This document shows, one piece after another, positions 41,564 through 55,799 of a stretch of DNA of 64,000 nucleotides. The notes under the pieces were generated by a model. That model was not told the DNA's origin, made no database searches, and saw nothing but the letters and a program-made list of their open reading frames with translations. The first letter of the stretch is position 1, and every line of letters begins with the position of its first letter. Source of the stretch: Clostridia bacterium (lineage in GTDB: Bacteria > Bacillota > Clostridia > Oscillospirales > CAG-272); NCBI GenBank assembly GCA_017455905.1, contig JAFTLQ010000006.1, positions 7,033-71,032 on the forward strand, in the 5' to 3' direction. The translations under genes were made by a program, and so were the position numbers.

Positions 41564-41603
41564 GTCGACGTAGCTCAGCCGGACAGAGCAACCGCCTCCT
41601 AAG
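41564..41603 (+). pseudogene. 5' half of disrupted host tRNA-Arg(CCT) (attL)
   Basis: gtcgacg-ta-gctc-agccggaca-gagc-a-accgc-ctCCTaa, then an abrupt switch to AT-rich DNA. Confidence 0.92.
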
Positions 41604-41692
41604 GAAACACTCTATCCGTCATATATCACTAAATATGGTATATAATAGAGCAAATATACACCATATATTGTGTTTTGTCAACATAAAAAATC

Positions 41693-41717
41693 AAATCGGT
41701 ATAAAAATCGGTATAAA
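41693..41717 (+). repeat. Tandem AAATCGGTATAAA, putative integrase arm sites of the left end
   Basis: Two copies at 12-bp period; share GGTAT with the right-end repeats at 51495-51537. Confidence 0.6.
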
Positions 41718-41762
41718 TTTTATAATTTTTGTTCCGTTTAATAACTTTCAAAACGTTAAAAT

Positions 41763-41839
41763 CTTTCCGTAGCGTAATCGGATAACGCAATCGCCTCCTA
41801 AGCGATAGACTGTGGGTTCAATTCCCGCCGGAAAGGCCA
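41763..41839 (+). tRNA. Complete island-borne tRNA-Arg(CCT)
   Basis: Acceptor ctttccg/cggaaag, D arm gcgt/acgc, anticodon arm atcgc-ctCCTaa-gcgat, T arm gtggg-ttcaatt-cccgc, G discriminator, CCA. Confidence 0.93.
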
Positions 41840-41840
41840 A

Positions 41841-41930
41841 AAAGAGATTGTTCGCAAGAGCAATCTCTTTATTTTTTTGCTTTCCATAGGAATTACTTTT
41901 CGGAGGCGTTGCGTTTAGCATTGACTTTTT
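41841..41930 (+). repeat. ~90-bp terminator+promoter module, copy 1
   Basis: aaagagattgttcgcaagagcaatctcttt...gcattgactttt; TTGACT(41921)-17-TATAAT; near-identical to 42366. Confidence 0.9.
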
Positions 41931-41972
41931 TATTCTTAACGTGTATAATTGTATTGTAAAGGAGTTGATTCT

Positions 41973-42344
41973 ATGAAAAAAATACAAACTATGAATGGTT
42001 TATTGAAGGATGTTTTTAATTCTCCAAAGAATTTTATTTTATTTCCATTTGCAATTATCGGTTGTGTGTTTATTGTTATTTTCTATGTCTGCTGTCCGTT
42101 TTATATGCTTGCGGAGTTGTTTGTTAATGAGTTACACTCTATAATCAAAGCAGATGGCGAAAATGATTCTAACGGCGCACAAGTAGTAAAAAATCTAATC
42201 GGGTTTGGCTTTGTTGTTATGTTTAACTTTTTGAGAAGTATTCTTGCTATTTTGCTTGCAATAGGTTATTTTATGACATCGGTTGCTTTTACTATATCTT
42301 CTATTGGAAAGTTAAAGAATAATCCATTCGCATACTCTATATAA
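41973..42344 (+). CDS. Hypothetical membrane protein
   Basis: AAGGAG RBS, ATG at 41973; two long hydrophobic segments. Confidence 0.7.
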   Translation: MKKIQTMNGLLKDVFNSPKNFILFPFAIIGCVFIVIFYVCCPFYMLAELFVNELHSIIKADGENDSNGAQVVKNLIGFGFVVMFNFLRSILAILLAIGYFMTSVAFTISSIGKLKNNPFAYSI

Positions 42345-42365
42345 AATACTAATGAAAAAATTACA

Positions 42366-42453
42366 AAGAGATTGTTCGCAAGAGCAATCTCTTTATTTTT
42401 TTGCTTTCCGTTCGAATAACTTTTCGGAGGCGTTGCGTTTTGCATTGACTTTT
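42366..42453 (+). repeat. ~90-bp terminator+promoter module, copy 2
   Basis: Matches 41841; TTGACT(42445)-17-TATAAT(42468). Confidence 0.9.
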
Positions 42454-42477
42454 CCTTTTGAAAGATTTATAATATAG

Positions 42478-42681
42478 GCATACCACATTTCTTTTTCAAT
42501 TGAATAATAAGTATTGCTCGCTTTTTAATGTTTGCTATGAAGGTATAATTTCGGTAGAATTATACCTAATCCGTTTATGATTCCTTTATGGCAAACGTGA
42601 GCGAAAAAAGAAGTGTGGTAGCTTGTGAAAGGGTATAATCTGCGGATGCCGCTTTCGCAAGAGGGCGGCATTCTTATTTTG
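42478..42681 (+). ncRNA. Candidate structured ncRNA (long rod plus terminator)
   Basis: Own promoter; nested helices 42481-96/42605-20, 42515-21/42597-603, 42530-43/42583-96; terminator 42645-42680. Confidence 0.6.
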
Positions 42682-42776
42682 TGCTAATGAACTAAATACG
42701 TGCAATATAAAAGCCGTTGGAAACAAATACTCGTTGTTTTCACGGCTTATTTTGTTTTTTGGGGATAGGAAAAGTT

Positions 42777-43313
42777 ATGGAAACTAAATCGTGTTGCTTT
42801 ATAGGTCATCGAACAATAAGGGATAAAGAAACAATTGAAAAACGATTGATAGAGAAAGTGACAACTCTGATAAAAGAAGGGGTGGACACCTTTTATTTTG
42901 GTAGCCGAAGCCGATTTGATGACTTGGCTTGGGAAGTCGTATCTAAGCTCAAAGAAGAATATCAAGAAATTAAAAGAATCTACGTTCGCTCGTCTTACGC
43001 TTACATAGATGATTCTTACAAGAATTATTTATTGGAATCTTATGAAGATACATATATGCCCGAAGGTGTTGAAAATGCAGGGGCTGCTTCTTATGTAGAA
43101 CGTAATCAAGCTATGATAAATTCAAGTGATGTTTGTGTTTTCTATTATGATGAAAATTATTTGCCGGCACGAAGAAAACAATCAAGACGTGCGCTGTCGG
43201 ATTATCAACCTAAAAGTGGAACAAAAATAGCTTTTGATTACGCTACTAAAAAAGGAAAGAAAATAATAAATATCGCAAAGGAACAAGATGGCAAAGGCGA
43301 AGAAAATAGTTAA
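42777..43313 (+). CDS. SLOG / DUF1273 (YspA-like) family protein
   Basis: SCCFIGHR, FYFG..SRFD, RNQAMIN.SD, SGTKIAFDYA. Confidence 0.8.
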   Translation: METKSCCFIGHRTIRDKETIEKRLIEKVTTLIKEGVDTFYFGSRSRFDDLAWEVVSKLKEEYQEIKRIYVRSSYAYIDDSYKNYLLESYEDTYMPEGVENAGAASYVERNQAMINSSDVCVFYYDENYLPARRKQSRRALSDYQPKSGTKIAFDYATKKGKKIINIAKEQDGKGEENS

Positions 43314-43731
43314 GCACACATTATTATCTCTTGGCGTTGTAGGTATTATAATTTCACTTTTAATAGGCTTGGGATTGCTATTTGATAAGAATAATCCAAC
43401 TTATGAAAGCGTTCCATACACAGTTGAAGAACCGAAAGTATATGTGACCAAATACGGAGATTGTTATCATAGTTATGATTGTTCTTATTTGCACTCATCA
43501 ATGATAGCAAAAGGAAAGGACAAAGCAAGAGAACAAGGATATAGGGCTTGTAGCAAATGTAACGGCGTTGCAAATGGACTGATAGAGGTAACGTACTATA
43601 AACAAGTCAAAAAGGATATGACCAATGACATCATATCAAGTTCGATTATTTGGGGTGTGATTATAGGTGGAATCACATATACTTTTATCTATAAAAAAAT
43701 TGCACATAATAAGAACGTAAGAGTCGGATAG
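43288..43731 (+). CDS. Membrane protein with small Cys/His metal-binding (Ada-like) domain
   Basis: VYVTKYGDCYH..DC..L...GYRACSKC between two TM helices. Confidence 0.7.
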   Translation: MAKAKKIVKHTLLSLGVVGIIISLLIGLGLLFDKNNPTYESVPYTVEEPKVYVTKYGDCYHSYDCSYLHSSMIAKGKDKAREQGYRACSKCNGVANGLIEVTYYKQVKKDMTNDIISSSIIWGVIIGGITYTFIYKKIAHNKNVRVG

Positions 43732-43874
43732 GGATATTTCGGCTCTTTTTATTTGTAAACTTTTTTCAATAGGGTTCAAATGTCCCAACTTTTACCCATT
43801 TGACGGTTTACTTTACCCACGATAAGTGTTATAATTATATTATGGATTATTATAACAATGAAAGGAGTTAACTT

Positions 43875-44861
43875 ATGTTCTCTCAAAATGCAACCCGTAT
43901 AAAACTTTTGAAGATATGGGAAATTCTATGCCAAGAAACCGATGAAGAGCATCCAATGGAGTCATTGACTTTAATTGAGAAACTTGCTGAAATGGGTATT
44001 CCCTGCACGAGAAAAACTCTTTATACAGATATACAAATTCTTAATGATTGTGGTTACGAGATTATCTGCTCTCGAAAAAAGAAGAACGAATACTACGTTA
44101 TTGATAGAAGTTTTGATTTGCCTGAGTTACATATACTCTTGGATGCCGTACAAGCGGCAAGCTTCATTACGCCTAAAAAGACAAAAGAATTTGTAAACAA
44201 GATAGCGGCTTTAGCAGGTAGTAGAAGTGGCGAAGTTATAAAAAGGAATATCGTTGCTTTTAATACGACGAAGAATACCAATGAAGCCATCTATTATTCT
44301 ATAAATGAAATAGCAACAGCGATAAACAAAAAGAAAAAAATAGAATTTGTTTACTTTGATTATGATGCCGATTACAAGAAGGTTTATAGAAAAGATGGGG
44401 CTAAATATGTTGTAAATCCTTATGCTACAATCTTTTCAGACGATAACTACTATTTGCTCGGATATAACGACAAATATAAAACAATTACACACTATCGTGT
44501 AGATAGAATGGAACACGTAAAGATGATTGAAGATGAATTAGTTCCCTTGTCTGACGATAAAGTATTTGACGTTAGAAAACATAAGAAAGAGTTGTTTGGA
44601 ATGTTTACGGGCAACGAGGAAAAGGTTTCTTTCGTTATAGATGGCAATATGTTGGATGTTGTATTTAGTAAGTTCGGTAGTGATATTAAATTGAAGAAGA
44701 TTGATGATGGTCATTATTCTTTTACAGCCGAAGTCCAAATAAGCCCGATATTCTTTGGGTGGTGTTGTGCTTTTGGCGAAAGGCTGAAAGTTGTAGCACC
44801 GGATAGCGTAATTGAAAAGATAAAAGAACACGTAAAAACGATAACAAATATGTATGAGTAA
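43875..44861 (+). CDS. WYL-domain transcriptional regulator (paralog 1)
   Basis: N-terminal wHTH (RKTLYTDI), VNPYA...NYYL...HYRVDRM, WCX-like tail. Confidence 0.9.
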   Translation: MFSQNATRIKLLKIWEILCQETDEEHPMESLTLIEKLAEMGIPCTRKTLYTDIQILNDCGYEIICSRKKKNEYYVIDRSFDLPELHILLDAVQAASFITPKKTKEFVNKIAALAGSRSGEVIKRNIVAFNTTKNTNEAIYYSINEIATAINKKKKIEFVYFDYDADYKKVYRKDGAKYVVNPYATIFSDDNYYLLGYNDKYKTITHYRVDRMEHVKMIEDELVPLSDDKVFDVRKHKKELFGMFTGNEEKVSFVIDGNMLDVVFSKFGSDIKLKKIDDGHYSFTAEVQISPIFFGWCCAFGERLKVVAPDSVIEKIKEHVKTITNMYE

Positions 44862-44881
44862 ATATCGGAGGAAAACTTGTT

Positions 44882-45547
44882 ATGATGATATGCCCTTTGA
44901 GTGTATTTGAAGAATTAAAGGATAAGCCCGAAAAGGAAATAAGGACGGCTATTCGTGGCTATAAGAATCAAATAGGACGATTAAAAAAGATACTTGAAAA
45001 TCCCGATTTTGAAGAGAATATGTGTCCTTCTCACGACTTACAACTGCAAATGAATAGAGAGTATTTGCAAAACGCAATTATGGCTCTGATAAGTGCAGGA
45101 TTTGAATATCAACCAAGCAAAAGCGAAGAAAAGTCAGACTTGTTTAACGAACGTTTGGAAGATTTAATGCAAATTGAATTTAACGTGGGTGGTTTTTTCA
45201 GTACACACGAAAGATACATTATTAAATTCGACGAAACGGACGAAGCGTTGTTCACGTATGACGTTGGTTTAGGTTATGATAGCGAAGTTGTTAGAAAAAC
45301 CATTTCAAAGCAAGAGTGCATTAAAGAATTAAAAGACTTGTATATGGGCGAGTGGAAACGCAAGTATTGGGCAGATGTGTTAGACGGAATACAATGGGAA
45401 GTTAAGTTATGGTTCTACCACAATAATCAAAAGACTTTCTATGGTAGCAACGCTTTCCCTTTTAGCTATGAGAAATTGAAAGAACTTTGTGAAATGTGGT
45501 GTCTTGATATTGAAGCAGAAATAAACGATGGAGAGGTAAAAAAATGA
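44882..45547 (+). CDS. Hypothetical protein
   Basis: GGAGG RBS; continuous operon-like spacing. Confidence 0.7.
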   Translation: MMICPLSVFEELKDKPEKEIRTAIRGYKNQIGRLKKILENPDFEENMCPSHDLQLQMNREYLQNAIMALISAGFEYQPSKSEEKSDLFNERLEDLMQIEFNVGGFFSTHERYIIKFDETDEALFTYDVGLGYDSEVVRKTISKQECIKELKDLYMGEWKRKYWADVLDGIQWEVKLWFYHNNQKTFYGSNAFPFSYEKLKELCEMWCLDIEAEINDGEVKK

Positions 45548-45930
45548 TTATAAAAAGAGAGTATGTAAGATTTATTGACTTGATAAATAGCGATAAAAAA
45601 GCAAAAGAAGTCTTTATAAAAGCTTTTGAAAGCTCCTATAAAGGCGAAACAAAAGAAAGAAAAGAAGAAATCTTTGGTATGTTGTCAACACAATGTTTGT
45701 ACCAAAGAGATATGGGTTGGTGTTTCAAAAATATAGGTGATTTGATTCAAGGATTTGAAAAATTAGATATAGAAGAACCATATAATAACGGAATGACATT
45801 TTCCAATGTAAACAAGGTAGAAATCGTTGAACGTGAAGATGATAGACTTGTTTTACACTTAATAAATATCTTTGATGGCGAAGAACGTATTGTTGCTATC
45901 AAAGAATTAGAAGCCGAAATTAACGAATAA
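45544..45930 (+). CDS. Hypothetical protein
   Basis: ATGA overlap with the previous gene; GAGG RBS. Confidence 0.65.
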   Translation: MIIKREYVRFIDLINSDKKAKEVFIKAFESSYKGETKERKEEIFGMLSTQCLYQRDMGWCFKNIGDLIQGFEKLDIEEPYNNGMTFSNVNKVEIVEREDDRLVLHLINIFDGEERIVAIKELEAEINE

Positions 45931-46022
45931 ATGCGAGATAAAATTTAGTTGCGACTATATTTTGTCTTGAAAAATTCATTTATATATGATACAATATAGG
46001 CATAACTTAAACGAGGTGTGTT

Positions 46023-46226
46023 ATGGTTAGTTATAAAAAGCTATGGAAACTTCTCATTGATAAGGAACTGTCTAAAAAAGAACTCGCTGAAAAAGCCGGT
46101 TTGAGTACGTACACTCTAACCAAGATGAACAAAGGCGATTCAGTCAAGTCTGATACGTTGGTTAAGATTTGTAAGGCTCTTAATTGCACGTTTGACGACA
46201 TTATGGAAATAGTTGAAGGAGAATAA
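46023..46226 (+). CDS. Cro/C1-type HTH regulator
   Basis: SYKKLWKLLIDK...LVKICKALNC..DIME; precedes hsdM. Confidence 0.9.
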   Translation: MVSYKKLWKLLIDKELSKKELAEKAGLSTYTLTKMNKGDSVKSDTLVKICKALNCTFDDIMEIVEGE

Positions 46227-46228
46227 CA

Positions 46229-47338
46229 ATGGCAAAGGCACAAAAGCAAGAAAAGACTATGGAAGCGGCTCTTTGGGAAGCGGCTAATAAATTACGTGGC
46301 GCAGTAGAACCTGCGGAATACAAGCACGTTGTTCTCAGCTTAATCTTCTTGAAATATGCAAGTGATAAGTTTGAAGAACGCAGACAAGAAATTATAGACG
46401 AAGGACACGGCGATTTTGTAGATAACGTTGCTTTCTACACGATGAAGAGTGTTTTCTATTTGCCGCCTGAATCTCGTTGGTCTTATATTATGGAACAGTC
46501 AAAGCAAAGCGATATTGCTTTGAAGATAGATACTGCTCTTTATACCATTGAAAAGAACAATGAATCTTTGAAAGGTGCTTTGCCGGATAACTATTATTCT
46601 CGTCTTGGACTTGATACGTCTAAACTCTCTTCTTTGCTCGATGAAATCAATAAGATTGAAATGGCAAAGGATAAAGAACAAGATATTATGGGTAGGGTGT
46701 ATGAATACTTCCTTTCTAACTTTGCTCTTCAAGAAGGTAAAGGTAAGGGAGAGTTCTATACTCCGAAATGTATCGTTAATTTGATTGCAGAACTTATCGA
46801 ACCTTATAAGGGAAAGATTTATGACCCTTGTTGTGGTTCGGGTGGTATGTTCGTTCAATCTATGAAGTTCGTACAAGCTCATAACGGAAACACTCGTGAA
46901 ATCGCTGTTTTCGGACAAGAAGCAACCAACACAACCTTGAAACTTGCTCGAATGAACTTGGCTATTCGTGGCATCAATGGAAATCTTGGTAAGAAAGCTG
47001 TAAGTACGTTTATGATACCGATAGAACTTACCGCAGACGCAATTGAACACTTGGGTAGCGACTTCTATCATATAAGACACATTTTTAACGCATTGAGAGA
47101 ACACAAAGAATTGCTTGAGCAACCTGACTATAAACGTCTGTATGACGAAGCTCAAGACTTCCTTTTCAGACACGCAGTTGAGTTTTCCGGTTGGAACAAA
47201 GACAGACGTGAATGGGGATATGATTGGATTGAATTTCTTGCCGATCTTAACAATTCCCACGATGATAATAATGAAAAATACTCCATAGAAACTGTGGATT
47301 CTTTTCTTGCGGAAAGAAGAAAAATTTGGAACTCATAA
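46229..47338 (+). pseudogene. hsdM: Truncated type I R-M methyltransferase (HsdM N-terminal ~260 aa) fused to an unrelated tail
   Basis: LWEAANKLRG, GEFYTP, YDPCCGSGGMF present; similarity ends near 47011 before the catalytic NPPF/Y motif; no hsdS or hsdR. Confidence 0.85.
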
Positions 47339-47467
47339 GAGACCTCTTTTTAGTGTGGTCTCTTATTTTTATTTTCGATTGAGAAGTACAAACTTTTGTA
47401 CTTGTGGTTGTTTACTTTTTCTACAATATATGATATAATATAAGATATTATGGGGAGGTGTAACTAT

Positions 47468-48469
47468 ATGGAATCCCAAAACAACGTAAGAATCAAAATG
47501 TTAAAGATATGGGAACTTCTCTGTCAAGAGACAGACGAAGATCATCCGATGGACACAATCACAATACTCGCTAAATTGAAGGAAATGGGGATCGTTTGCG
47601 ACAGACGTACCCTATATAATGACATAAAGATCCTGAATGACTGTGGTTATGAAATAATCTGCCGCCGTTCTCGGAATAACGAATATTTTGTTATTGACCG
47701 TAGCTTTGATTTGCCCGAATTACATATTCTTCTCGATGCTATTCAGGCAGCCGGATTTATTACAAAATCCAAAAGCAAGGTGCTGATAGATAAGGTTGCA
47801 AGTCTCGCAGGAAGTCGTAAAGGCGAAGTTCTCAAGAGAAACATTGTTGCCTTCAATACGACAAAGAACACCAATGAGGCAATTTACTATTCTATCAACG
47901 AGATTATTGAAGCTATCAAGCAACAGAAAAAGATAGCGTTCCTCTACTTCGATTATGACCATAAGCACAATAGAGTTTATCGCAAAGACGGGCACCATTA
48001 TGTAGTGAATCCTTTTGCAACGGTGTTCTCTAACGATAACTACTATCTTGTGTGTTATAACGACGTACACCGAACTATCACTCATTATCGTATTGACAGA
48101 ATGGATAAGGTTATAATCTTGCCTGATAAGCCCATTTCACCTTTGCCTGAAGGTCAAACTTTTAGCATTTCAAGACACAAGAAACAAGTCTTTGGAATGT
48201 ACACCGGAAACGAGGTTGAGGTCACATTTGTCATAGATAAAGAACTGATCGACGTTGTGTTTGAAAAGTTTGGAGAAAAGACAAAAATAATGCCCTACGG
48301 AGACGATAAATACCTGTTCAAAGCTGAAGTCCAAGTAAGCCCTGTATTTCTCGGTTGGGTATGTGCTTTTGGAAAGCGTTTGAAGGTAACTTCGCCCCAA
48401 AGCGTAGTTGATAGCATCCAAGCACATTTGGAAGAATTGAGACAAAATTACGAAACCAAAGGAGAATGA
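47468..48469 (+). CDS. WYL-domain transcriptional regulator (paralog 2)
   Basis: Colinear with 43875, with long identical blocks (VIDRSFDLPELHILLDA; KRNIVAFNTTKNTNEAIYYSINEI). Confidence 0.9.
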   Translation: MESQNNVRIKMLKIWELLCQETDEDHPMDTITILAKLKEMGIVCDRRTLYNDIKILNDCGYEIICRRSRNNEYFVIDRSFDLPELHILLDAIQAAGFITKSKSKVLIDKVASLAGSRKGEVLKRNIVAFNTTKNTNEAIYYSINEIIEAIKQQKKIAFLYFDYDHKHNRVYRKDGHHYVVNPFATVFSNDNYYLVCYNDVHRTITHYRIDRMDKVIILPDKPISPLPEGQTFSISRHKKQVFGMYTGNEVEVTFVIDKELIDVVFEKFGEKTKIMPYGDDKYLFKAEVQVSPVFLGWVCAFGKRLKVTSPQSVVDSIQAHLEELRQNYETKGE

Positions 48470-49131
48470 AAATGCCAAGAACTATTACTGTAAAAGGTGT
48501 AGGTGCAGTATCCGCCAAGCCTGATTTAATCGTTATTACAATGACTCTCGAAAACAAAGATATGGATTACGAAACTTCGGTTGATATGTCTGCAAAACAG
48601 ATTCAAGAACTTTGCTCTGCGCTTGTTCAAATTGGATTTGAACAGATAGATTTGAAGACAACGAGTTTCAACGTAAGCACCTCGTATGATAATGTGAAGG
48701 ATCGCAATGGCAATTACAAGAGAGTCTTCGATGGGTACGAATGTACACACCGTCTGAAGTTGGAATTTGACTTGGATATTTCCTTGCTTGGAAAGGTACT
48801 CGCAGCTATCGCTTCTTGCTCTGCTAACCCTGAACTTTCTATCGGATTTACTGTTAAAGAACCCTCTGCGGTAAGTGCCGAATTACTTAAGTCTGCTACT
48901 GCAAATGCAAAAGCAAAAGCAGAGATTCTTTGCGAGGCTTCGGGGGTAAAATTGGGCTCTTTGCTAACTATTGATTACAATTGGGGTGAACTCAATGTGT
49001 ATTCCACTACAAGATACGAAATGGAAGAAAAGTGTATGGCAATGCCTTGTGGCGGAATTGCCGATATGAATTTTGAACCTGACGATATAGACGTAAGTGA
49101 TACGGTAACATTCGTTTGGGAGATTGCATAA
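48466..49131 (+). CDS. SIMPL domain (DUF541) protein
   Basis: TITVKG.G.VSAKPD...A.ANAKAKAEIL..ASGVKLG...VTFVWEI. Confidence 0.85.
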   Translation: MKMPRTITVKGVGAVSAKPDLIVITMTLENKDMDYETSVDMSAKQIQELCSALVQIGFEQIDLKTTSFNVSTSYDNVKDRNGNYKRVFDGYECTHRLKLEFDLDISLLGKVLAAIASCSANPELSIGFTVKEPSAVSAELLKSATANAKAKAEILCEASGVKLGSLLTIDYNWGELNVYSTTRYEMEEKCMAMPCGGIADMNFEPDDIDVSDTVTFVWEIA

Positions 49132-49142
49132 GGAGGAGTTCA

Positions 49143-49769
49143 ATGGGAGTAACGCGAGAAACATTAGAAAACGGAAATGTATTAAAAGCACTTACTGCTT
49201 CTCCAACGCTGATTCAAGCATTGAAGGAGTACCGCATTTGGTGGGATGTTCGGAGAGAAACTTATGGTGATTATCTACAGGAAACGGATAAAATTTTCAC
49301 TCAAAACAACGGCAAAAACATTCACCCAAGCACGCTTTATGAATGGAACAAAAGAATCCTTAAAGCCGCCGGAATCGAGCATTATTCATTGCACAGTATT
49401 CGACACACGAATATCACTATGCAGATTGCCGCAGGAGTTCCTATTGTAACGGTATCTGCTCGTGCAGGACACGCTCGTGCAAGCACTACAACCGACACCT
49501 ATGCTCACTTCATTCGCAGTAGCGACGTCGCCGCAGCCGAAACGATAGATCACCTTTTCGATAACGGAGACCAACCCGATACCACCACAATAACGGAACC
49601 TCCCAAAAAGAAGGTTGAGCTCGTTCAATCCTTCAGAAAAGCGAAAGCTGAAATGGAGCGTTTAGGGATTGAAACCTATGACGAATATCTTGAATATTTG
49701 GAGTTCGTAGAAGCTACCAAAAGCAGAGGTAGTGGTCAGGGTGCAGACGGTGATACCGAGATGGACTGA
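49143..49769 (+). pseudogene. C-terminal fragment of a tyrosine recombinase/integrase
   Basis: HSIRHT (HxxR), AGH, DTYAH (catalytic Tyr); arm-binding, core-binding and first Arg regions absent. Confidence 0.85.
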
Positions 49770-49961
49770 ACCCATCAAAAAAAGAATGCACTCTTTGAAA
49801 AAAGGGTGCATTTTCTATTCAAATACGGTGCATAAATAATCGCATACGCATTGACAATTTGTTGATTTTATGGTATAATATTTATGCTGAAATTGGAATA
49901 GGAATTTAATATAGCATTCCAACGAGACGAACCTTTATTACAAGTGTGAATGGCACGATTT

Positions 49962-50005
49962 TGTACACCCGTGTACACCCTATTTTGTACACCCTTTGTA
50001 CACCC
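49962..50005 (+). repeat. Four direct TGTACACCC repeats, putative integrase arm sites
   Basis: Copies at 49962, 49972, 49986, 49997; 126 nt before a CTCCTAAG core. Confidence 0.85.
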
Positions 50006-50131
50006 GAAAGGCAAAAAGCAGGGCGAAAGTTACTTCAAATCACGCACAAAACGAAAGATATTTGACGAAAAATACGCCAAAAACCGCCTAAAATAAGCCA
50101 TTTTGAAGATAGACTCAAACACTTGAATAAA

Positions 50132-50175
50132 CTCCTAAGTTTCTGTTGTGAGTTCGATTCTCGCCGGGGAGGCCA
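50132..50175 (+). pseudogene. Orphan 3' half of a third tRNA-Arg(CCT)
   Basis: ctCCTaa-gtttc-tgtt-gtgag-ttcgatt-ctcgc-cggggag-g-cca, followed by terminator aagaccgc...gcggtctt. Confidence 0.85.
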
Positions 50176-50262
50176 TAAGACCGCTTTAATGCGGTCTTTT
50201 TCTTTTTTGTCACCAACAAAAAAGTTGGCTAAGATCACCTTAGCCAACTGTCACCTTGTTTA

Positions 50263-51339
50263 TTATGTTTTTTCGATTAAAAGCTCTCTCACCGCATTTA
50301 TTTCGGAATCTGCAAGCCCCAATGAACGCAAAAAATTTTCTGTTGCTGTTTGGTAGCTGTCACCGTAGGTAAGCAACTTCTCACAAAATTTACCCATAGC
50401 AATATAGTTCACATTATCATTCTGTTGTACGTATGCGCGAGATCGCTTACCTTGCGGCGAAAACGTGGTCATTTCATAACAATGCATAGCATCGGCAAAT
50501 CCAACGCCCAGCAGACAATGTAGCAGGAAAACGATCGTACCGGTTCTATCCGCGCCTGCGTTACAGTGCAAATACACAGGATAGTTTTCCGCTTTCCCAA
50601 GCACGCGGAATATATCGGGAATGTTTTTATTGCGCTCATCATTCGAAAAAATATTGTCATAAGTCGGCATCGGAAGCTTATAATACGGCAGCGAAGCGTC
50701 TAATTCATTCGCCGTTTGAACTGGTTTTTCCCCACTTTCCGTATAATAGCAATCGTCATCGCCCGTGACGCGGAGATCTATTTCCGAGCGGATTCCAAGC
50801 TCCTTTACCATGATCTTACGAACGCCGTCTGTCATGCGATACGTATTGTTCCAGCGATTGTTCAAATGCGTACCACGGTAAAACATACCGTATTTCACTT
50901 TGCCGCACGGTGTACTATAACCGCCTGCGTCTCTTACGTTTCTGGGTCCAAATCCCTCATCATCCATACACCTTAGCGGACGGACGATGCAGTTTTCAGT
51001 AACAAAGCTTATCCTCTCCGAACAAGCCTCTCCGTTTGTGGAAAACACCTGCGCGTAATATTTCGTATCAGGCAGCAGCGTAGCGAGATTGACCTTGTTG
51101 TCCTTAATAACCCGCTCCGCATACGGAGTAAGTGTTTCCAGCTTTGAAAAACGCAAGATACAGCCGTCTGCATCTCCTTCAAGATACAAATATGATTCCT
51201 GCTTATCCGCATCGCCTGACGGCGTGTTTTTCACCATTTCTGCGCTCACCTCAAAATCCATTTCAAGATATGCGCGAAGGGTGGGATGCAGGAGCGTCAC
51301 CACACTATCGATAGGTTTAAACACAATGCTATATGCCAC
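50263..51339 (-). CDS. Protein-tyrosine phosphatase-like protein
   Basis: NVRDAGG, EIDLR, P-loop HCNAGADRTG. Confidence 0.88.
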   Translation of the reverse strand: MAYSIVFKPIDSVVTLLHPTLRAYLEMDFEVSAEMVKNTPSGDADKQESYLYLEGDADGCILRFSKLETLTPYAERVIKDNKVNLATLLPDTKYYAQVFSTNGEACSERISFVTENCIVRPLRCMDDEGFGPRNVRDAGGYSTPCGKVKYGMFYRGTHLNNRWNNTYRMTDGVRKIMVKELGIRSEIDLRVTGDDDCYYTESGEKPVQTANELDASLPYYKLPMPTYDNIFSNDERNKNIPDIFRVLGKAENYPVYLHCNAGADRTGTIVFLLHCLLGVGFADAMHCYEMTTFSPQGKRSRAYVQQNDNVNYIAMGKFCEKLLTYGDSYQTATENFLRSLGLADSEINAVRELLIEKT

Positions 51340-51494
51340 AATAAAACTCCTTGGTTAGTAAGAAAAGATATTATCATTATAATTCCTTTCGCTTAAAAAA
51401 ACAAGGTGTTTTTTATTATTTATCAAATACCCTTAGAAGAAAATACGCGATCACTATCCATGCAGTTGTAGTGCTTAGATGAAAGCGTATCAAA

Positions 51495-51537
51495 TTGGCA
51501 TAGTTTTGGTATAATTTTTGGTATTAAAGTTGGTATT
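51495..51537 (+). repeat. Four TTGG(T/C)AT repeats, putative arm sites of the right end
   Basis: Copies at 51495, 51506, 51518, 51530; 122 nt before the attR core. Confidence 0.7.
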
Positions 51538-51659
51538 AGAAGCGAAAATTACTTGACGAAACGAACAAAAAGCCTTAAAATAGACGCATTTTAGGGCATA
51601 AAACGCACGAAAATCAAGAAAAATCGCATTTTTAACGCCACTTTTACGGTAGGAAAGCA

Positions 51660-51704
51660 CTCCTAAACGGTAGGTCGGAGGTTCGAATCCTCTCGTCGAC
51701 GCCA
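51660..51704 (+). pseudogene. Displaced 3' half of host tRNA-Arg(CCT) (attR)
   Basis: ctCCTaa-acggt-aggtc-ggagg-ttcgaat-cctct-cgtcgac-g-cca; cgtcgac pairs 7/7 with gtcgacg at 41564. Confidence 0.93.
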
Positions 51705-51729
51705 AAGGCAGCCGAAAGGCTGCCTTTTA
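51704..51729 (+). terminator. Terminator of the original tRNA gene
   Basis: aaaggcagcc-gaaa-ggctgccttt. Confidence 0.8.
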
Positions 51730-51825
51730 AGTAAAAAGGTATAGGAATTTATATTTTCACCACAGCCACCAAGCATAGGCGCAAAATGGAACCTATGCGG
51801 CTTATTATATAAAGAAAAAGACCGA

Positions 51826-52599
51826 CTTCCGTCGCTCGCTAACGTTGTTCTCCATAACGACGTTGAAAGCGTTGGATACGAAGCTTTCCATGGTTGCGGA
51901 CTTACAACAATTACATTTGGAAACGGCATTAAAAGCATTGACGAGTATGCTTTTAACGGAACTTACAACACCGTGGCTATACATATAGATTCAATTGCTA
52001 CGTGGTGCAATATTGACTTTGGAAGCAATTCACTTCCATACAACAAAAACTTGGTGATTGATGGCACTATTGTTAAAGACGTTGTGATTCCTGACGGCAT
52101 TACCGAAATAAAACCGTATGCGTTTTATTATTTTAAAAATATCGAAAGTGTTACATTAGGAAAAGACGTGACGAGCATCGGCGAATGGGCTTTCTATTTT
52201 TGTAACGGACTAAAGACGGTCGAATTTAACGAAGGTCTGTTATCAATCGAAGATTATGCGTTTGGTGCGTGCTCCGGTTTGACACAAATTATTTTTCCGG
52301 ACAGCTTACAGACGATCAAGGAAGGTGCGTTCAGCGGATGTAGCAGCCTTGCGTCGATTGTTTTGGGGCGCAAAATTACAACTATCGAAGCGTATGCTTT
52401 CAGCAGCTCATATCCTTGGCCGATATACTATCACGGCGCCTTCAGCGAGTTCAATGCAACGATAGGTAAAAACAATCAAAACTTGAACGTTGCAAAGCAA
52501 GGCATATACTATTATTCTTCAACAGAACCTACGGATACGAATTACACCTATTGGTATTATTCCGATGATGGCGTTCCAACACTTTGGCCAACGGAATAA
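51826..52599 (+). pseudogene. 5'-truncated BspA-type leucine-rich repeat protein
   Basis: Repeats such as VTSIGEWAFYFCNGL; LRR pattern continues upstream of the called GTG with no RBS or start. Confidence 0.75.
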
Positions 52600-52762
52600 A
52601 TCGAAAAAAGTCTGCGTCGCACGATGTACGCACAGACTTTGACTAACGACTTGGCGGCAGGCTATGCAATATAGCTTGTCGCCTTTTCTTTTTTCTTCTC
52701 TACATGTAACTTGCGAATGTAGGTTTTTTCATTTTTTAAAAGGTCGCCTATAAGGTCTTTTT

Positions 52763-52847
52763 TGTCCACCCGTTGTACACCCGCACGATATAAGACACCA
52801 CAAAATCGCCCGCACGCCGATAGCCGGGGCACGTATGAAAGCTCCTA
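52763..52847 (+). repeat. att-arm-like repeat, copy 1 (internally shortened)
   Basis: TGTCCACCC-gt-TGTACACCC...ggggcacgtatgaaagCTCCTA. Confidence 0.8.
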
Positions 52848-52974
52848 TTCTGTATCAATTTCTCACAAAAACACATACTATTTACGAGAAAATTCAAGTT
52901 TTTCTCACATCCCATTGACTAATCTCGTAAAATATGCTATAATTTATGAGAAAACAAGTTGCTTGGGAGTTTGT

Positions 52975-54021
52975 ATGAGAAAATTCAACTATACGGCATT
53001 AAAAAATATGAAGTGGGATTCCGAAATGATGGGATACGTTGCCATCATTCACGAAATGAAGGGTAAGCAGGTACTTTATCTTAGGCAAAAGCCCGAAACG
53101 CTTGACAAGCTTGTAGAAATCGCAAAGGTACAAAGCACCGAAAGCTCCAACGAGATCGAGGGAATCCGCACGACTAACACTCGCCTGAAGCAGCTTGTGT
53201 CAGAAAAAACAACACCAAAAAATCGTGACGAGCAAGAAATCGCCGGATATCGTGATGCGCTTGCCGTGATACACGAAAGCTTTGAATATATTCCTCTGAC
53301 AACGAATTATCTTTTACAGTTGCATAAAATTTTGTATAGCCATTCGGTAAAAGACGTTGGTGGAAAATTCAAAACGACACAGAATTATATCAGCGCAACC
53401 GACAGCGAGGGAAACCCATTCACCCTATTTACGCCGCCTGTGCCGTATGAAACACCCGATATGATATCGGAGCTTTGCGATGCGTTCAACCGCGCTATCG
53501 CAGAATGCGATGTTGACCCGCTTATACTCATACCCATCTTCATTCACGATTTTCTTTGTATCCACCCTTTCCTCGACGGAAACGGGAGAATGAGCCGCTT
53601 GCTCACAACGCTTCTCTTATACCGTAGTGGATATATGGTCGGCAAATATATTTCCTTAGAGGCAAAAATCGCAAAGAATAAAAATCTATATTACGACGCC
53701 TTGGAGCAATCACAAGTCGGTTGGCACGATGCGAGCGATGATCCCACACCTTTCGCTAAGTATTTGCTCGGTACGATCATATCCGCATATCGTGATTTTG
53801 AGGAGCGAATGGACATTGTTGGTGATAAAGATTCCGCTATGGATATCGTTACAAAAGCCGTTGCAACAAGGATAGGCAAATTCACAAAGGCGGATATTGC
53901 CGCTTTGTGTCCTTCCATCAGCGCAAGCTCTGTGGAAAGCTCACTAAAAAAATTAGTACGTAACGGTGTTGCTCGAAAACACGGAAACGGTAGAGCTACC
54001 TTCTACACAAGAAATATATGA
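52975..54021 (+). CDS. Fic family protein with C-terminal HTH
   Basis: HPFLDGNGRMSR; inhibitory-type SNEIEG; promoter TTGACT(52915)-17-TATAAT; ATG at 52975. Confidence 0.93.
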   Translation: MRKFNYTALKNMKWDSEMMGYVAIIHEMKGKQVLYLRQKPETLDKLVEIAKVQSTESSNEIEGIRTTNTRLKQLVSEKTTPKNRDEQEIAGYRDALAVIHESFEYIPLTTNYLLQLHKILYSHSVKDVGGKFKTTQNYISATDSEGNPFTLFTPPVPYETPDMISELCDAFNRAIAECDVDPLILIPIFIHDFLCIHPFLDGNGRMSRLLTTLLLYRSGYMVGKYISLEAKIAKNKNLYYDALEQSQVGWHDASDDPTPFAKYLLGTIISAYRDFEERMDIVGDKDSAMDIVTKAVATRIGKFTKADIAALCPSISASSVESSLKKLVRNGVARKHGNGRATFYTRNI

Positions 54022-54022
54022 G

Positions 54023-54137
54023 CGTCCACCCGCGGTACACCCACACAATATATAGCTCCGTGGAAATCACCCTCAACCACAAAACCTACCAAGCGTAAAA
54101 TCTGCATTTCCCTCGGATCTTACGCTTATTTTGCAAA
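54023..54137 (+). repeat. att-arm-like repeat, copy 2
   Basis: GTCCACCC-gc-GGTACACCC...agcgtaaaatctgcatttccc..ggat.ttacgctt.ttttgcaa shared with copy 3. Confidence 0.8.
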
Positions 54138-54142
54138 ACCTC

Positions 54143-54182
54143 TTGACTTGTGGCTAAATATAGTGTATAATTTAGCCACAAG
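54143..54182 (+). promoter_or_regulatory. TA operon promoter with 13-bp perfect operator palindrome
   Basis: TTGACT-17-TATAAT overlapped by cttgtggctaaat...atttagccacaag. Confidence 0.85.
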
Positions 54183-54212
54183 AGCATATAATAAAAACGG
54201 AGGTAAATCATA

Positions 54213-54470
54213 ATGACTATTATTCCTATGCGTGACTTAAAAGACACCGTTGAAATTGAAAGACGTTGCGCCGAAGCAGGCGGTCCCGTATTCGTTACTA
54301 AAAACGGTTACGGCAGACTTGTTGTAATGGATATTGAGTATTACGAGAAAACAATGAGCAAAATATATGAAGCCAAGCTTGTAAACGATGGACTTTCCGA
54401 TATCGAAAGCGGTAAAACCGTAGACGGCGACGCTGTAAGAGCAAGAATGGCCGAGAAGTATGGAGTTTGA
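54213..54470 (+). CDS. Phd/YefM family antitoxin
   Basis: IIPMRDL...PVFVTKNGYGRLVVMDIEYYE. Confidence 0.9.
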   Translation: MTIIPMRDLKDTVEIERRCAEAGGPVFVTKNGYGRLVVMDIEYYEKTMSKIYEAKLVNDGLSDIESGKTVDGDAVRARMAEKYGV

Positions 54471-54786
54471 GTATTCATATCGGTTTACAGAGAAGGCTGC
54501 GCAGGATTTTGACGAGATCCTGCGCTACATATCGGTTGACTTGGCAAATCCCGTTGCCGCGCAAAATCTTGGAAAAAAGATTTTTGAAAAAATTGACGTT
54601 GTAAGAGCCTTTCCGAATTCCGGTGCTCCTATTGAAAATGAGTTTTTATCTGATAAGACGGTGCGTAAATTGTTAGCGGATAATTACATTATTTACTACA
54701 AGGCACATTACGAAGAAAACATCATTTCAATCGTCCGTATCGTTTATGGCAAGCGTAATCTTGATGAAATTTTACGAGATATTTAG
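54460..54786 (+). CDS. RelE/ParE family toxin
   Basis: FTEKAAQDF..I..YI...NYIIYY...IVRIVYGKRN; overlaps the antitoxin gene. Confidence 0.9.
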   Translation: MEFEYSYRFTEKAAQDFDEILRYISVDLANPVAAQNLGKKIFEKIDVVRAFPNSGAPIENEFLSDKTVRKLLADNYIIYYKAHYEENIISIVRIVYGKRNLDEILRDI

Positions 54787-54824
54787 TTTTTCGTGCGGGC
54801 GAAATATAGAGTTTGATTTATATT

Positions 54825-54987
54825 TGTCCACCCGTTGTACACCCACACGATACAAACCACCACAAAAGATACCAACAAACACACAACATACGAGCGTAAA
54901 ATCTGCATTTCCCGCGGATTTTACGCTTGTTTTGCAAGAAAATCGCCCACGCGCAGATAGCCCGGGGCACGTATGAAAATTCCTAAG
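54825..54987 (+). repeat. att-arm-like repeat, copy 3 (longest, ends in TTCCTAAG)
   Basis: Contains both the copy-1 and copy-2 blocks; arm-to-core gap 135 nt. Confidence 0.8.
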
Positions 54988-55007
54988 GGGTAGTTACAGG
55001 TAGATTT

Positions 55008-55066
55008 CAAATCATGAAGCCGTAAGGCTTCAATTCATGGCGGCTTGCCGTCAATTCATCAATTCG
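55008..55066. repeat. Short REP-like cluster (CAATTCAT units with mini-hairpins)
   Basis: tgaagcc-gtaa-ggcttca, tggcggc-tt-gccgtca, repeated caattcat. Confidence 0.5.
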
Positions 55067-55227
55067 CACGTGTGTTCACAAATGCAGTGCTTGTTAAATC
55101 TTAATTAAAGACACCAAAATTGATTGACAAAAGTAACTCAAAAGCACTTATGGCAAGATTTCCATAAGTGCCTTTTGCTACCTTCAGGGAGATGCTGAAA
55201 ATCAGCAAATACAATGTTTCAAACAAT

Positions 55228-55431
55228 TCATACCGTGAGTAGTGGAGAAGCGTGTTTGCTTTCCCCTTCGCTTTTGGAATCAAATTCGGGAAAACAAAGC
55301 AAGTAGTAGTCACACTCGTCGCAACAACATTCAAAGCCTTGCTCTCCGTTGCCAAGACACACATTAGGCTCTCCCGGAGTCAGTTCTACTTCGGTAATAT
55401 CGATTACCTTTTTGGGAATAACTTTACTCAT
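55228..55431 (-). CDS. Small Cys-rich hypothetical protein
   Basis: GAGGTG RBS; CLGNG...ECCCDECDYYLLC. Confidence 0.65.
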   Translation of the reverse strand: MSKVIPKKVIDITEVELTPGEPNVCLGNGEQGFECCCDECDYYLLCFPEFDSKSEGESKHASPLLTV

Positions 55432-55451
55432 ACACTCACCTCATCAGCATA

Positions 55452-55612
55452 CAAAAAAGTGCGCCCCAAAAGGAACGCACCGAAAAAATGCATCCCCTTA
55501 GTTTGTTGTCACACAAATGCTCTCCCAACGAAGGTATGAGGAAAAGGAGAAAACACTTTTTACCAAAAGTATTTTCCCTTCGTTGGTTAGAACATATGCA
55601 ATTTGTGTGACG
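55452..55612 (-). ncRNA. Candidate structured ncRNA/leader (rod plus terminator)
   Basis: Promoter TTGACA(55646)-17-TAAAAT; helices 55508-18/55601-11, 55525-34/55577-86; terminator 55453-55480. Confidence 0.55.
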
Positions 55613-55799
55613 AGAATATTTTACCATAGTTCTGCCGATTTGTCAATATAGCTTGAAAATGTTACAAAAATATTCTTGCATTGATGTCTTTAATTTAGTC
55701 AGTGCTTGCAAAGAAAAGTGGACGAGGAGTTTTAAACACTCTTCGTCCTTTTCCTTGATAAGCACTGACTTAATGAAAGATACTAAAGCTGCATACGTG

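Follow-up and report, generated by a model that had tools for sequence, protein, structure and literature searches.

The 64,000-nt stretch of DNA analysed here (the window) comes from a Clostridia bacterium of the Oscillospirales (CAG-272; GenBank assembly GCA_017455905.1, contig JAFTLQ010000006.1, positions 7,033 to 71,032 of the forward strand), and it carries, inside an insert that splits a host tRNA-Arg(CCT) gene, the 3' half of another tRNA-Arg(CCT) gene. We consider it probable, at roughly 0.8, that this orphan half is the relic of stacked site-specific cassettes which target the anticodon loop of tRNA-Arg(CCU) and which were inserted one inside the other. The genome is a metagenome-assembled genome (MAG) of 40 contigs and 56% completeness, and the whole-genome negatives given below cover its assembled part.

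The host gene can be recognised on both sides of the insert. Host DNA has a G+C content of about 58%, a block of about 40% G+C spans 41604 to approximately 55790, and directly before this block lies the displaced 5' half of a tRNA-Arg(CCT) gene (41564-41603, + strand), with acceptor strand GTCGACG, anticodon-stem strand ACCGC and an 8-nt core, CTCCTAAG, at 41596-41603; it shares 91% identity over 35 nt with tRNA-Arg(CCT) genes of 77 nt in relatives. The displaced 3' half at 51660-51704 (+ strand) reads CTCCTAA, an A in place of G39, CGGT, the T arm, acceptor strand CGTCGAC, G and CCA. The two halves pair together at 7/7 positions of the acceptor stem and 4/5 of the anticodon stem, the mismatch being caused by the A at 51667, and because they pair, the host gene is split by the whole of 41604-51659, with the orphan inside the insert. 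Further core sites stand at 50132-50139 and 51660-51666(7). Neither ARAGORN nor Rfam called a whole tRNA at either host junction, Rfam gave no match for the tRNA halves as such, and the sequence after the host 5' half is GAAACACTC..., not a tRNA 3' half; the one whole tRNA-Arg(CCT) that both programs found in the region lies at 41763-41839. We sought an empty site in five genomes of the same genus by way of two flanking proteins, and none could be defined, the orthologues (31-39% and 63-67% identity) lying on separate contigs; a DNA search of 41 relatives for the locus gave matches at the level of the tRNA only. A candidate empty site, a joint of 41603 to 51668 in X9 (one contig, shorter side 38 nt), was rejected, as its flanks are unlike the window and it represents a related intact tRNA.

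The orphan junction has the anatomy that a sequence-only reading of the window had listed at 49143-50210, namely an integrase fragment, arm repeats, a tRNA 3' half with CCA and a terminator, all of which are present there. The open reading frame (ORF) at 49116-49769 (ATG at 49143) matches the Pfam family Phage_integrase (PF00589) at profile positions 82-167 of 172 only, and its product aligns at 48% identity with a 464-aa integrase encoded on a viral contig (L041), at residues 325-464 of the latter. What is left at 49143-49769 (+ strand) is the C-terminal third of a tyrosine integrase, the gene being cut off against a SIMPL gene; because some 324 N-terminal residues are gone, including the region of the first catalytic Arg, the fragment is predicted to be incapable of activity. 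The right arm that follows (approximately 49940-50131) contains four direct GTACACCC repeats (49963-50005, + strand), putative arm-type sites, and this motif occurs 9 times in the window where 0.81 copies are expected, a count attained in 0 of 100 shuffles. At 50132-50139 (+ strand) the core, which corresponds to tRNA positions 32-39, joins this arm to the orphan 3' half (50140-50175, + strand), which runs GTTTC / TGTT / GTGAG-TTCGATT-CTCGC / CGGGGAG / G / CCA and has a terminator-like hairpin behind it (50177-50198). A promoter-like site (49851-49879, + strand), a perfect TTGACA-17-TATAAT with extended TG, is also present in the interval from the integrase fragment to the arm repeats and is oriented toward the attachment (att) core and the orphan half.

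The orphan does not fit either 5' half in the window. Its anticodon-stem strand forms 2/5 pairs with each of them, as the sequence-only reading had noticed, and over 12 positions in all it pairs 6/12 with the host 5' half, 9/12 with the 5' half of the intact island tRNA at 41763-41839, and 12/12 with the 5' half of a tRNA in another MAG (locus L038). Given the 6/12 pairing, the orphan could not restore the host gene. That it resembles the island tRNA more than the host one also held: the acceptor strand forms 7/7 pairs with the island tRNA (two of them G-U) versus 4/7 with the host 5' half, and the identity of the 3' half is 0.73 to the island tRNA versus 0.65-0.67 to the host 3' half.

Intact relatives show where such a half comes from. 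An exact search with the 28-nt T arm and acceptor of the orphan, in one genome per species, gave 15 loci (L024-L038), all in gut or rumen Clostridia MAGs, and the orphan is 100% identical to the 3' halves of their intact tRNAs. In 15/15 loci the match is preceded by the same core and by the cognate strand GGAAC, which pairs with the orphan's GTTTC, and for this reason the match is not due to chance. ARAGORN called a 75-nt tRNA-Arg(CCT) in 14/14 submitted loci (L034, cut by a contig end, was omitted), which settles the isotype in agreement with the sequence-only reading; the Rfam score of this intact type is 54.8 bits. A displaced tRNA-Arg 5' half with core lies 145-157 nt upstream of the intact tRNA in 10 of the 15 loci, and a conserved left-arm end, comprising the last tens of bases before the tRNA with GGTAT-type repeats, is present in 13 of the 14 loci that have upstream sequence. 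L031 has neither the upstream 5' half nor the conserved arm, and its tRNA may be chromosomal. By sequence context, then, the orphan type appears to be a tRNA mostly carried by cassettes rather than an ordinary chromosomal tRNA or one of another isotype, and with intact copies in 15 genomes, 10 of them in cassette context, the claim that the orphan stems from an element-borne replacement tRNA split by a second element gained support. In a pattern search of 401 genomes of the same order, no match to the orphan T arm and acceptor with fewer than two mismatches was found outside the genome itself; ten matches with two mismatches were chromosomal-looking 75-nt tRNA-Arg(CCT) genes with an identical T arm, a different acceptor and 0.84-0.86 identity.

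The most informative of these loci is L038, on a 3.5-kb contig, whose positions 505-1864 match window positions 50129-51488 at 98.75% over 1360 nt. Here the terminator and the phosphatase gene known from the window stand behind an intact tRNA, which is the allele with the outer element only that the sequence-only reading had proposed to look for. The homology starts exactly at the core, 28 nt of the L038 5' half have no counterpart in the window, and the L038 cassette resides in a different host tRNA; as an intermediate it supports the entry of a second element into a tRNA borne by a cassette, so that a replacement tRNA does regenerate the target. In the window, the phosphatase gene (tyrosine/dual-specificity family; 50263-51339, - strand; Pfam Y_phosphatase3, 3.5e-21) forms the outer cassette's cargo; next comes the outer right arm, at 51489-51659 (+ strand), with GGTAT[AT] at 51508, 51520 and 51532 and GGCAT[AT] at 51497. 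Arms of L030 and L026 match it at 90-93% identity and are followed there by the core and by the 3' halves of other hosts' tRNAs.

The inner segment begins with a left arm (41604-41762, + strand) that carries GGTAT[AT] repeats at 41637, 41698 and 41710, followed by the intact replacement tRNA-Arg(CCT) (41763-41839, + strand; acceptor CTTTCCG/CGGAAAG; called by ARAGORN; 65.8 bits in Rfam) and a terminator at 41841-41870. Positions 1-348 of a metagenome contig (L040) correspond to window positions 41595-41949 at 94.4% over 355 nt and cover the core, the left arm, the inner tRNA and the terminator. Because L040 carries the same arm, tRNA and terminator joined, this arm belongs natively to the inner tRNA; L040 stops short of any right end. 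It has related counterparts in the left arms of L025, L027, L032, L035 and L037, and it is of another subtype than the arm upstream of the outer tRNA in L038. Since the present arm goes with the inner tRNA in L040 and differs from the L038 arm, the missing parts are the left arm and the 5' half of the outer cassette, together with one core. We sought the outer 5' half in the genome's own assembly, allowing up to 6 substitutions, and did not find it, and a scan of viral contigs for the inner tRNA gave no match.

From these comparisons the following history can be envisioned. Because the elements share only the 8-nt core CTCCTAAG with their target, insertion would kill the tRNA gene with no rebuilding, and what each element would provide instead is a whole substitute tRNA-Arg(CCU), located some 150 nt inward from the left end of the element and equipped with a promoter region and a terminator of its own. 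As the substitute has the same anticodon loop, it would constitute a fresh attachment site. An outer cassette, bearing the tRNA type CTCCCTG...CGGGGAG and the phosphatase gene (now 50140-51659), would first have sat in a tRNA-Arg gene; an integrase-bearing element would then have entered the outer substitute tRNA, stranding its 3' half behind the newcomer's right arm, and the working tRNA would now be the intact one at 41763-41839. The latter is the sole tRNA-Arg(CCT) of the assembled genome, which has a tRNA-Arg(TCT) on another contig (C9); tRNA-Arg(TCT) may decode AGG to some degree. Finally, two att cores that do not naturally form a pair would have recombined, with loss of the outer left arm and 5' half. 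A site-specific event at the cores seems preferable to a random deletion because the host 5' half joins the inner arm exactly at the core. Two routes can be considered: the two left junctions may have recombined in place, deleting what lay between them, or a composite may have been excised elsewhere by way of the left att site of the inner element and the right att site of the outer one and then integrated here as a unit. Of this history, the anatomy, the intact alleles, the allele with the outer element only and the native linkage of inner arm and inner tRNA are observed; the catalysis by an integrase, the sequence of events and the manner in which the 5' half disappeared are inferred.

Several findings weigh against so simple a history. 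The split of this tRNA type is seen once: no second genome with it was found, and each of the 15 exact matches belongs to an intact tRNA. With GGTAT-type repeats on the left arm but GTACACCC repeats on the right, the inner segment is not one clean element; from these unlike arms and from its truncated and duplicated genes and modules it looks like the fused remains of at least two elements, and if so, the stack had three or more layers. No full-length integrase was found at the locus or in the assembled 56% of the genome; the outer cassette and the cassettes of L030, L026 and L038 are without integrase, and the assembly that holds L029 and L030 (G424) has a single PF00589 match. The host 3' half has A, not G, at position 39. 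Beyond it, at 51705-55790, lies low-GC DNA with att relics that pure nesting does not predict. The orphan junction itself is bridged by at least 31 nt on both sides in one independent contig only, that of sequencing run X1 described below. The locus is a decayed mosaic, and nested insertion into a replacement tRNA has good support as the event behind the orphan within it.

The alternative that survives best concerns the second of the two routes, and we put it not far short of an even chance. According to it, the nesting took place in another host, and 41604-51659 was excised through the inner left and outer right att sites and integrated here as a unit, with the orphan 3' half carried along as cargo and the outer left arm and 5' half staying behind in the donor. 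This would make a deletion unnecessary, and it agrees with the host halves flanking the composite exactly at the cores, with the GGTAT[AT] repeats on both the inner left and the outer right arm, such that one integrase could pair both, and with the outer cassette sitting in a different host tRNA in L038. The reciprocal product expected of such an excision is a cargo-free stack of 5' halves, and L008 has one: in the first 500 nt of a contig from a genome of the same order (G035:C17, minus strand), a tRNA-Arg(CCT) truncated by the contig end is preceded by a series of four tRNA-Arg(CCT) 5' halves, two of the GCCCCCG type and two of the GTTTCCG type, with identical stretches of 83 nt as spacers among the last three. 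The array is the sort of scar expected from stacks like the one proposed here; it could have other origins, however, and its 3' side is unassembled. The same composite was found in no other genome or contig, and deletion in place between two direct cores yields an identical final structure. A second match in the G035 genome proved to be a tRNA-Arg(TCT) cluster.

The sequence-only reading had explained the missing parts differently, by homologous recombination between the similar outer and inner 5' halves, which would have removed the inner left arm and made the present arm the outer one. The acceptor strands of the cassette tRNAs are indeed related, the inner 5' strand pairing 7/7 with the orphan, and GGTAT repeats occur on the left arm as well as on the outer right arm. 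This account is nevertheless contradicted by L040 and very unlikely: L040 joins the same arm to the same inner tRNA, with 94.4% identity from the core onward, in L038 another arm subtype precedes the outer tRNA, the outer and inner 5' halves differ at many positions, and the inner tRNA pairs with itself at 12/12 positions, with no sign of a chimeric 5' half. We hold it to be just as improbable that no tRNA was ever split, and that a phosphatase cassette carrying only a 3' half in its att site, in the manner of islands that restore their tRNA target, came to adjoin another element by plain tandem accretion. A junction of right arm, core and non-tRNA sequence does exist at 52841-52847, and it looks tandem; yet the same 3' half lies within a whole tRNA in 15/15 other genomes, including beside the phosphatase gene in L038, and with its 6/12 pairing to the host 5' half it could not have restored the host gene.

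The join at the orphan was also checked in independent assemblies. A 6015-nt Logan contig of run X1 covers 47011-52500 with 0 differences, and another X1 contig covers 41000-41824; X1 is possibly the source sample, and these contigs count as a second assembly, not a second sample. In another study (X5), a 719-nt contig covers 41000-41640, with 17 differing letters and 4 gaps, and reaches 37 nt past the junction of host core and left arm. Contigs of X4 end at 50161 and start at 50132, and they also break at 41604, which suggests that alternative contexts of the locus exist in that sample; an X4 joint of 49098 to 51659 was disregarded, one side being 21 nt. The weakest explanation, that the assembler joined two populations at a short shared tRNA sequence, might be encouraged by the fragmented, incomplete MAG and by the X4 breaks, but it is scarcely credible given that, left of the junction, the orphan and intact tRNAs share the 8-nt core and two bases only, far under assembly word sizes, that the X1 contig runs through the region unchanged, and that the host halves flank the whole block in register.

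Relatives of the integrase fragment were found neither in L001-L040 nor in the rest of the genome. The closest, at 48-50% identity, are encoded on the 45-kb viral contig L041 and, at L044, in another genome of this order, and both adjoin an arrangement of displaced 5' half, CTCCTAA, arm and intact tRNA-Arg(CCT), with the integrase at the tRNA end on the opposite strand. Because the cassettes of L030, L026 and L038 are without integrase and the G424 assembly has its single PF00589 match, most cassettes, judging from gene content, would have to be moved in trans. For more distant integrase relatives, with 34-40% identity and lengths of 460-500 aa, a tRNA gene of some other isotype is found no more than about 1.5 kb away in each case: tRNA-Met in L046, L047 and L050, Arg-ACG in L048, Leu in L052, Thr in L053 and Pro in L054.

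It is tempting to go one step further, although we do so tentatively and regard the idea as possible rather than likely. The locus could be a self-renewing cassette array, somewhat like an integron without a fixed platform, which grows inward, is reshuffled at its cores, forms composites and leaves AGG decoding to the innermost cassette. Pairing of inner left and outer right att sites would package cassettes together with stranded 3' halves, and the donor would keep cargo-free stacks of 5' halves. The decoding of AGG by the innermost cassette would then stabilise the whole stack of defence-type cargo (restriction-modification, Fic, toxin-antitoxin and WYL regulators).

The cargo of the inner segment (41871-49142, + strand), as described by Pfam, PADLOC and repeat analysis, is itself a mosaic. 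A terminator-promoter module is duplicated (41841-41949 and 42365-42473) at 87% identity on either side of a 131-aa ORF, and L040 and a contig of run X5 are without the intervening piece. A YpsA/SLOG protein and a Cro/C1-type helix-turn-helix protein are encoded within the cargo, as are two WYL-domain regulators in paralogous modules (43875-44861 and 47450-48469), a Type I methyltransferase cut to about the first 260 profile positions (46229-47338) and the SIMPL/DUF541 protein (48466-49131) against whose gene the integrase is truncated. No phage structural or lysis genes were found among the scanned ORFs; a phage collection gave a sole match, of 72.8% over 750 nt (7% of the query), which covers the methylase, and a plasmid collection gave none. 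Elsewhere, the cargo of the L030 cassette comprises Type III restriction-modification and HNH genes.

To the right of the host 3' half, the att relics lie among further low-GC genes. A right-arm relic with GTCCACCC and GTACACCC (52764-52847, + strand) has a damaged core, GCTCCTA, at its end, with TTCTG after it; at 54024-54136 there is a relic of the arm alone; and a third relic (54826-55001, + strand) consists of a right arm, TTCCTAAG and 14 nt (GGGTAGTTACAGGT) of a tRNA-Arg 3' half of the 75-nt type, the same half that is intact in the resident tRNA of L026. The genes of this region are a truncated LRR_5 gene within 51705-55790, a SoFic-like Fic protein (52762-54021) and a Phd/ParE pair (54213-54786). 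As L026 has the same module order, with 85% identity in the Fic region, the block 51705-55790 may have moved as a unit.

Some further features of the tRNA genes and halves deserve mention in their own right. The displaced host 5' halves in five genomes contain a conserved insert of about 65-115 nt in the D loop (L025:2503-2650, - strand; L027:1132-1284; L029:5919-6021; L035:5067-5214, - strand; L038:178-327), for which RNAalifold predicts 28 pairs, 13 of them with compensatory changes, and which has no Rfam match; the insert may represent a structured RNA, or else a small element inserted site-specifically. In L024, L026 and L034, the displaced 3' halves are broken in the T loop after GGTTCG, where a conserved hairpin (..CCGTCCTTCCC.G.GGGAAGCTTGT.AGAC..) follows, and this interruption looks like the end of another type of insert that would target the T loop. 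The cassette-borne tRNA-Arg(CCT) genes of both types start with C1-G72, and the host-type and other chromosomal ones seen here start with G1.

If the substitute tRNAs of cassettes are indeed attachment sites, a single chromosomal tRNA gene becomes an open-ended landing pad, at which each arrival would renew the target and take over a part of the host's translation apparatus. This would offer a simple route to islands of defence and accessory genes in gut Clostridia, and to composites that move several cassettes together. For annotation it suggests caution on two counts: lone tRNA halves at such loci would be the marks of past layers of insertion, not split or trans-spliced tRNA genes, and the lone "host" tRNA-Arg(CCU) of such a genome may be foreign.

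A literature search found no paper on nested tRNA-replacing elements in Clostridia, and the locus is best placed by comparison with three known systems. In the ICESt1/ICESt3 family of Streptococcus, integrase-less, att-bounded elements called cis-mobilizable elements (CIMEs) reportedly accumulate by site-specific accretion and are presumed to be moved in trans and as composites. The outer cassette here has no integrase, and the junction of arm, core and non-tRNA sequence at 52841-52847 looks tandem; the orphan junction, however, lies inside a tRNA gene of another element. Unlike CIMEs, which lie side by side at duplicated att sites, the resident cassette would have offered the new target inside its own tRNA gene, which leads to nesting, and the layers are marked by pieces of tRNA rather than by simple att repeats.

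Islands of the Islander type in tRNA and tmRNA genes (PMC4383910) restore their target by carrying a copy of the displaced part, such that an intact tRNA stands at one of the junctions. They share with the present locus the site-specific insertion into tRNA genes, the displaced fragments that mark the ends and the tandem build-up at one tRNA; in contrast to those islands, neither junction here is a tRNA, the target is not restored, and a whole separate tRNA is supplied instead. [quoted passage not shown] The present locus agrees in having an 8-nt core that overlaps a tRNA gene, no rebuilt tRNA at the host junctions and a supplied tRNA of the same isotype, both at 41763-41839 and in the intact relatives of the orphan. 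It differs from the phage system in that the elements are small non-phage cassettes of gut Clostridia, often without an integrase of their own, and in that the left attachment arm includes the tRNA, at a distance of 145-157 nt from the core. The same paper carries the speculation that a second plasmid may use a plasmid tRNA as its bacterial attachment site (attB); what is suggested there for plasmids would, in the window, have left its trace as nesting in a natural genome.

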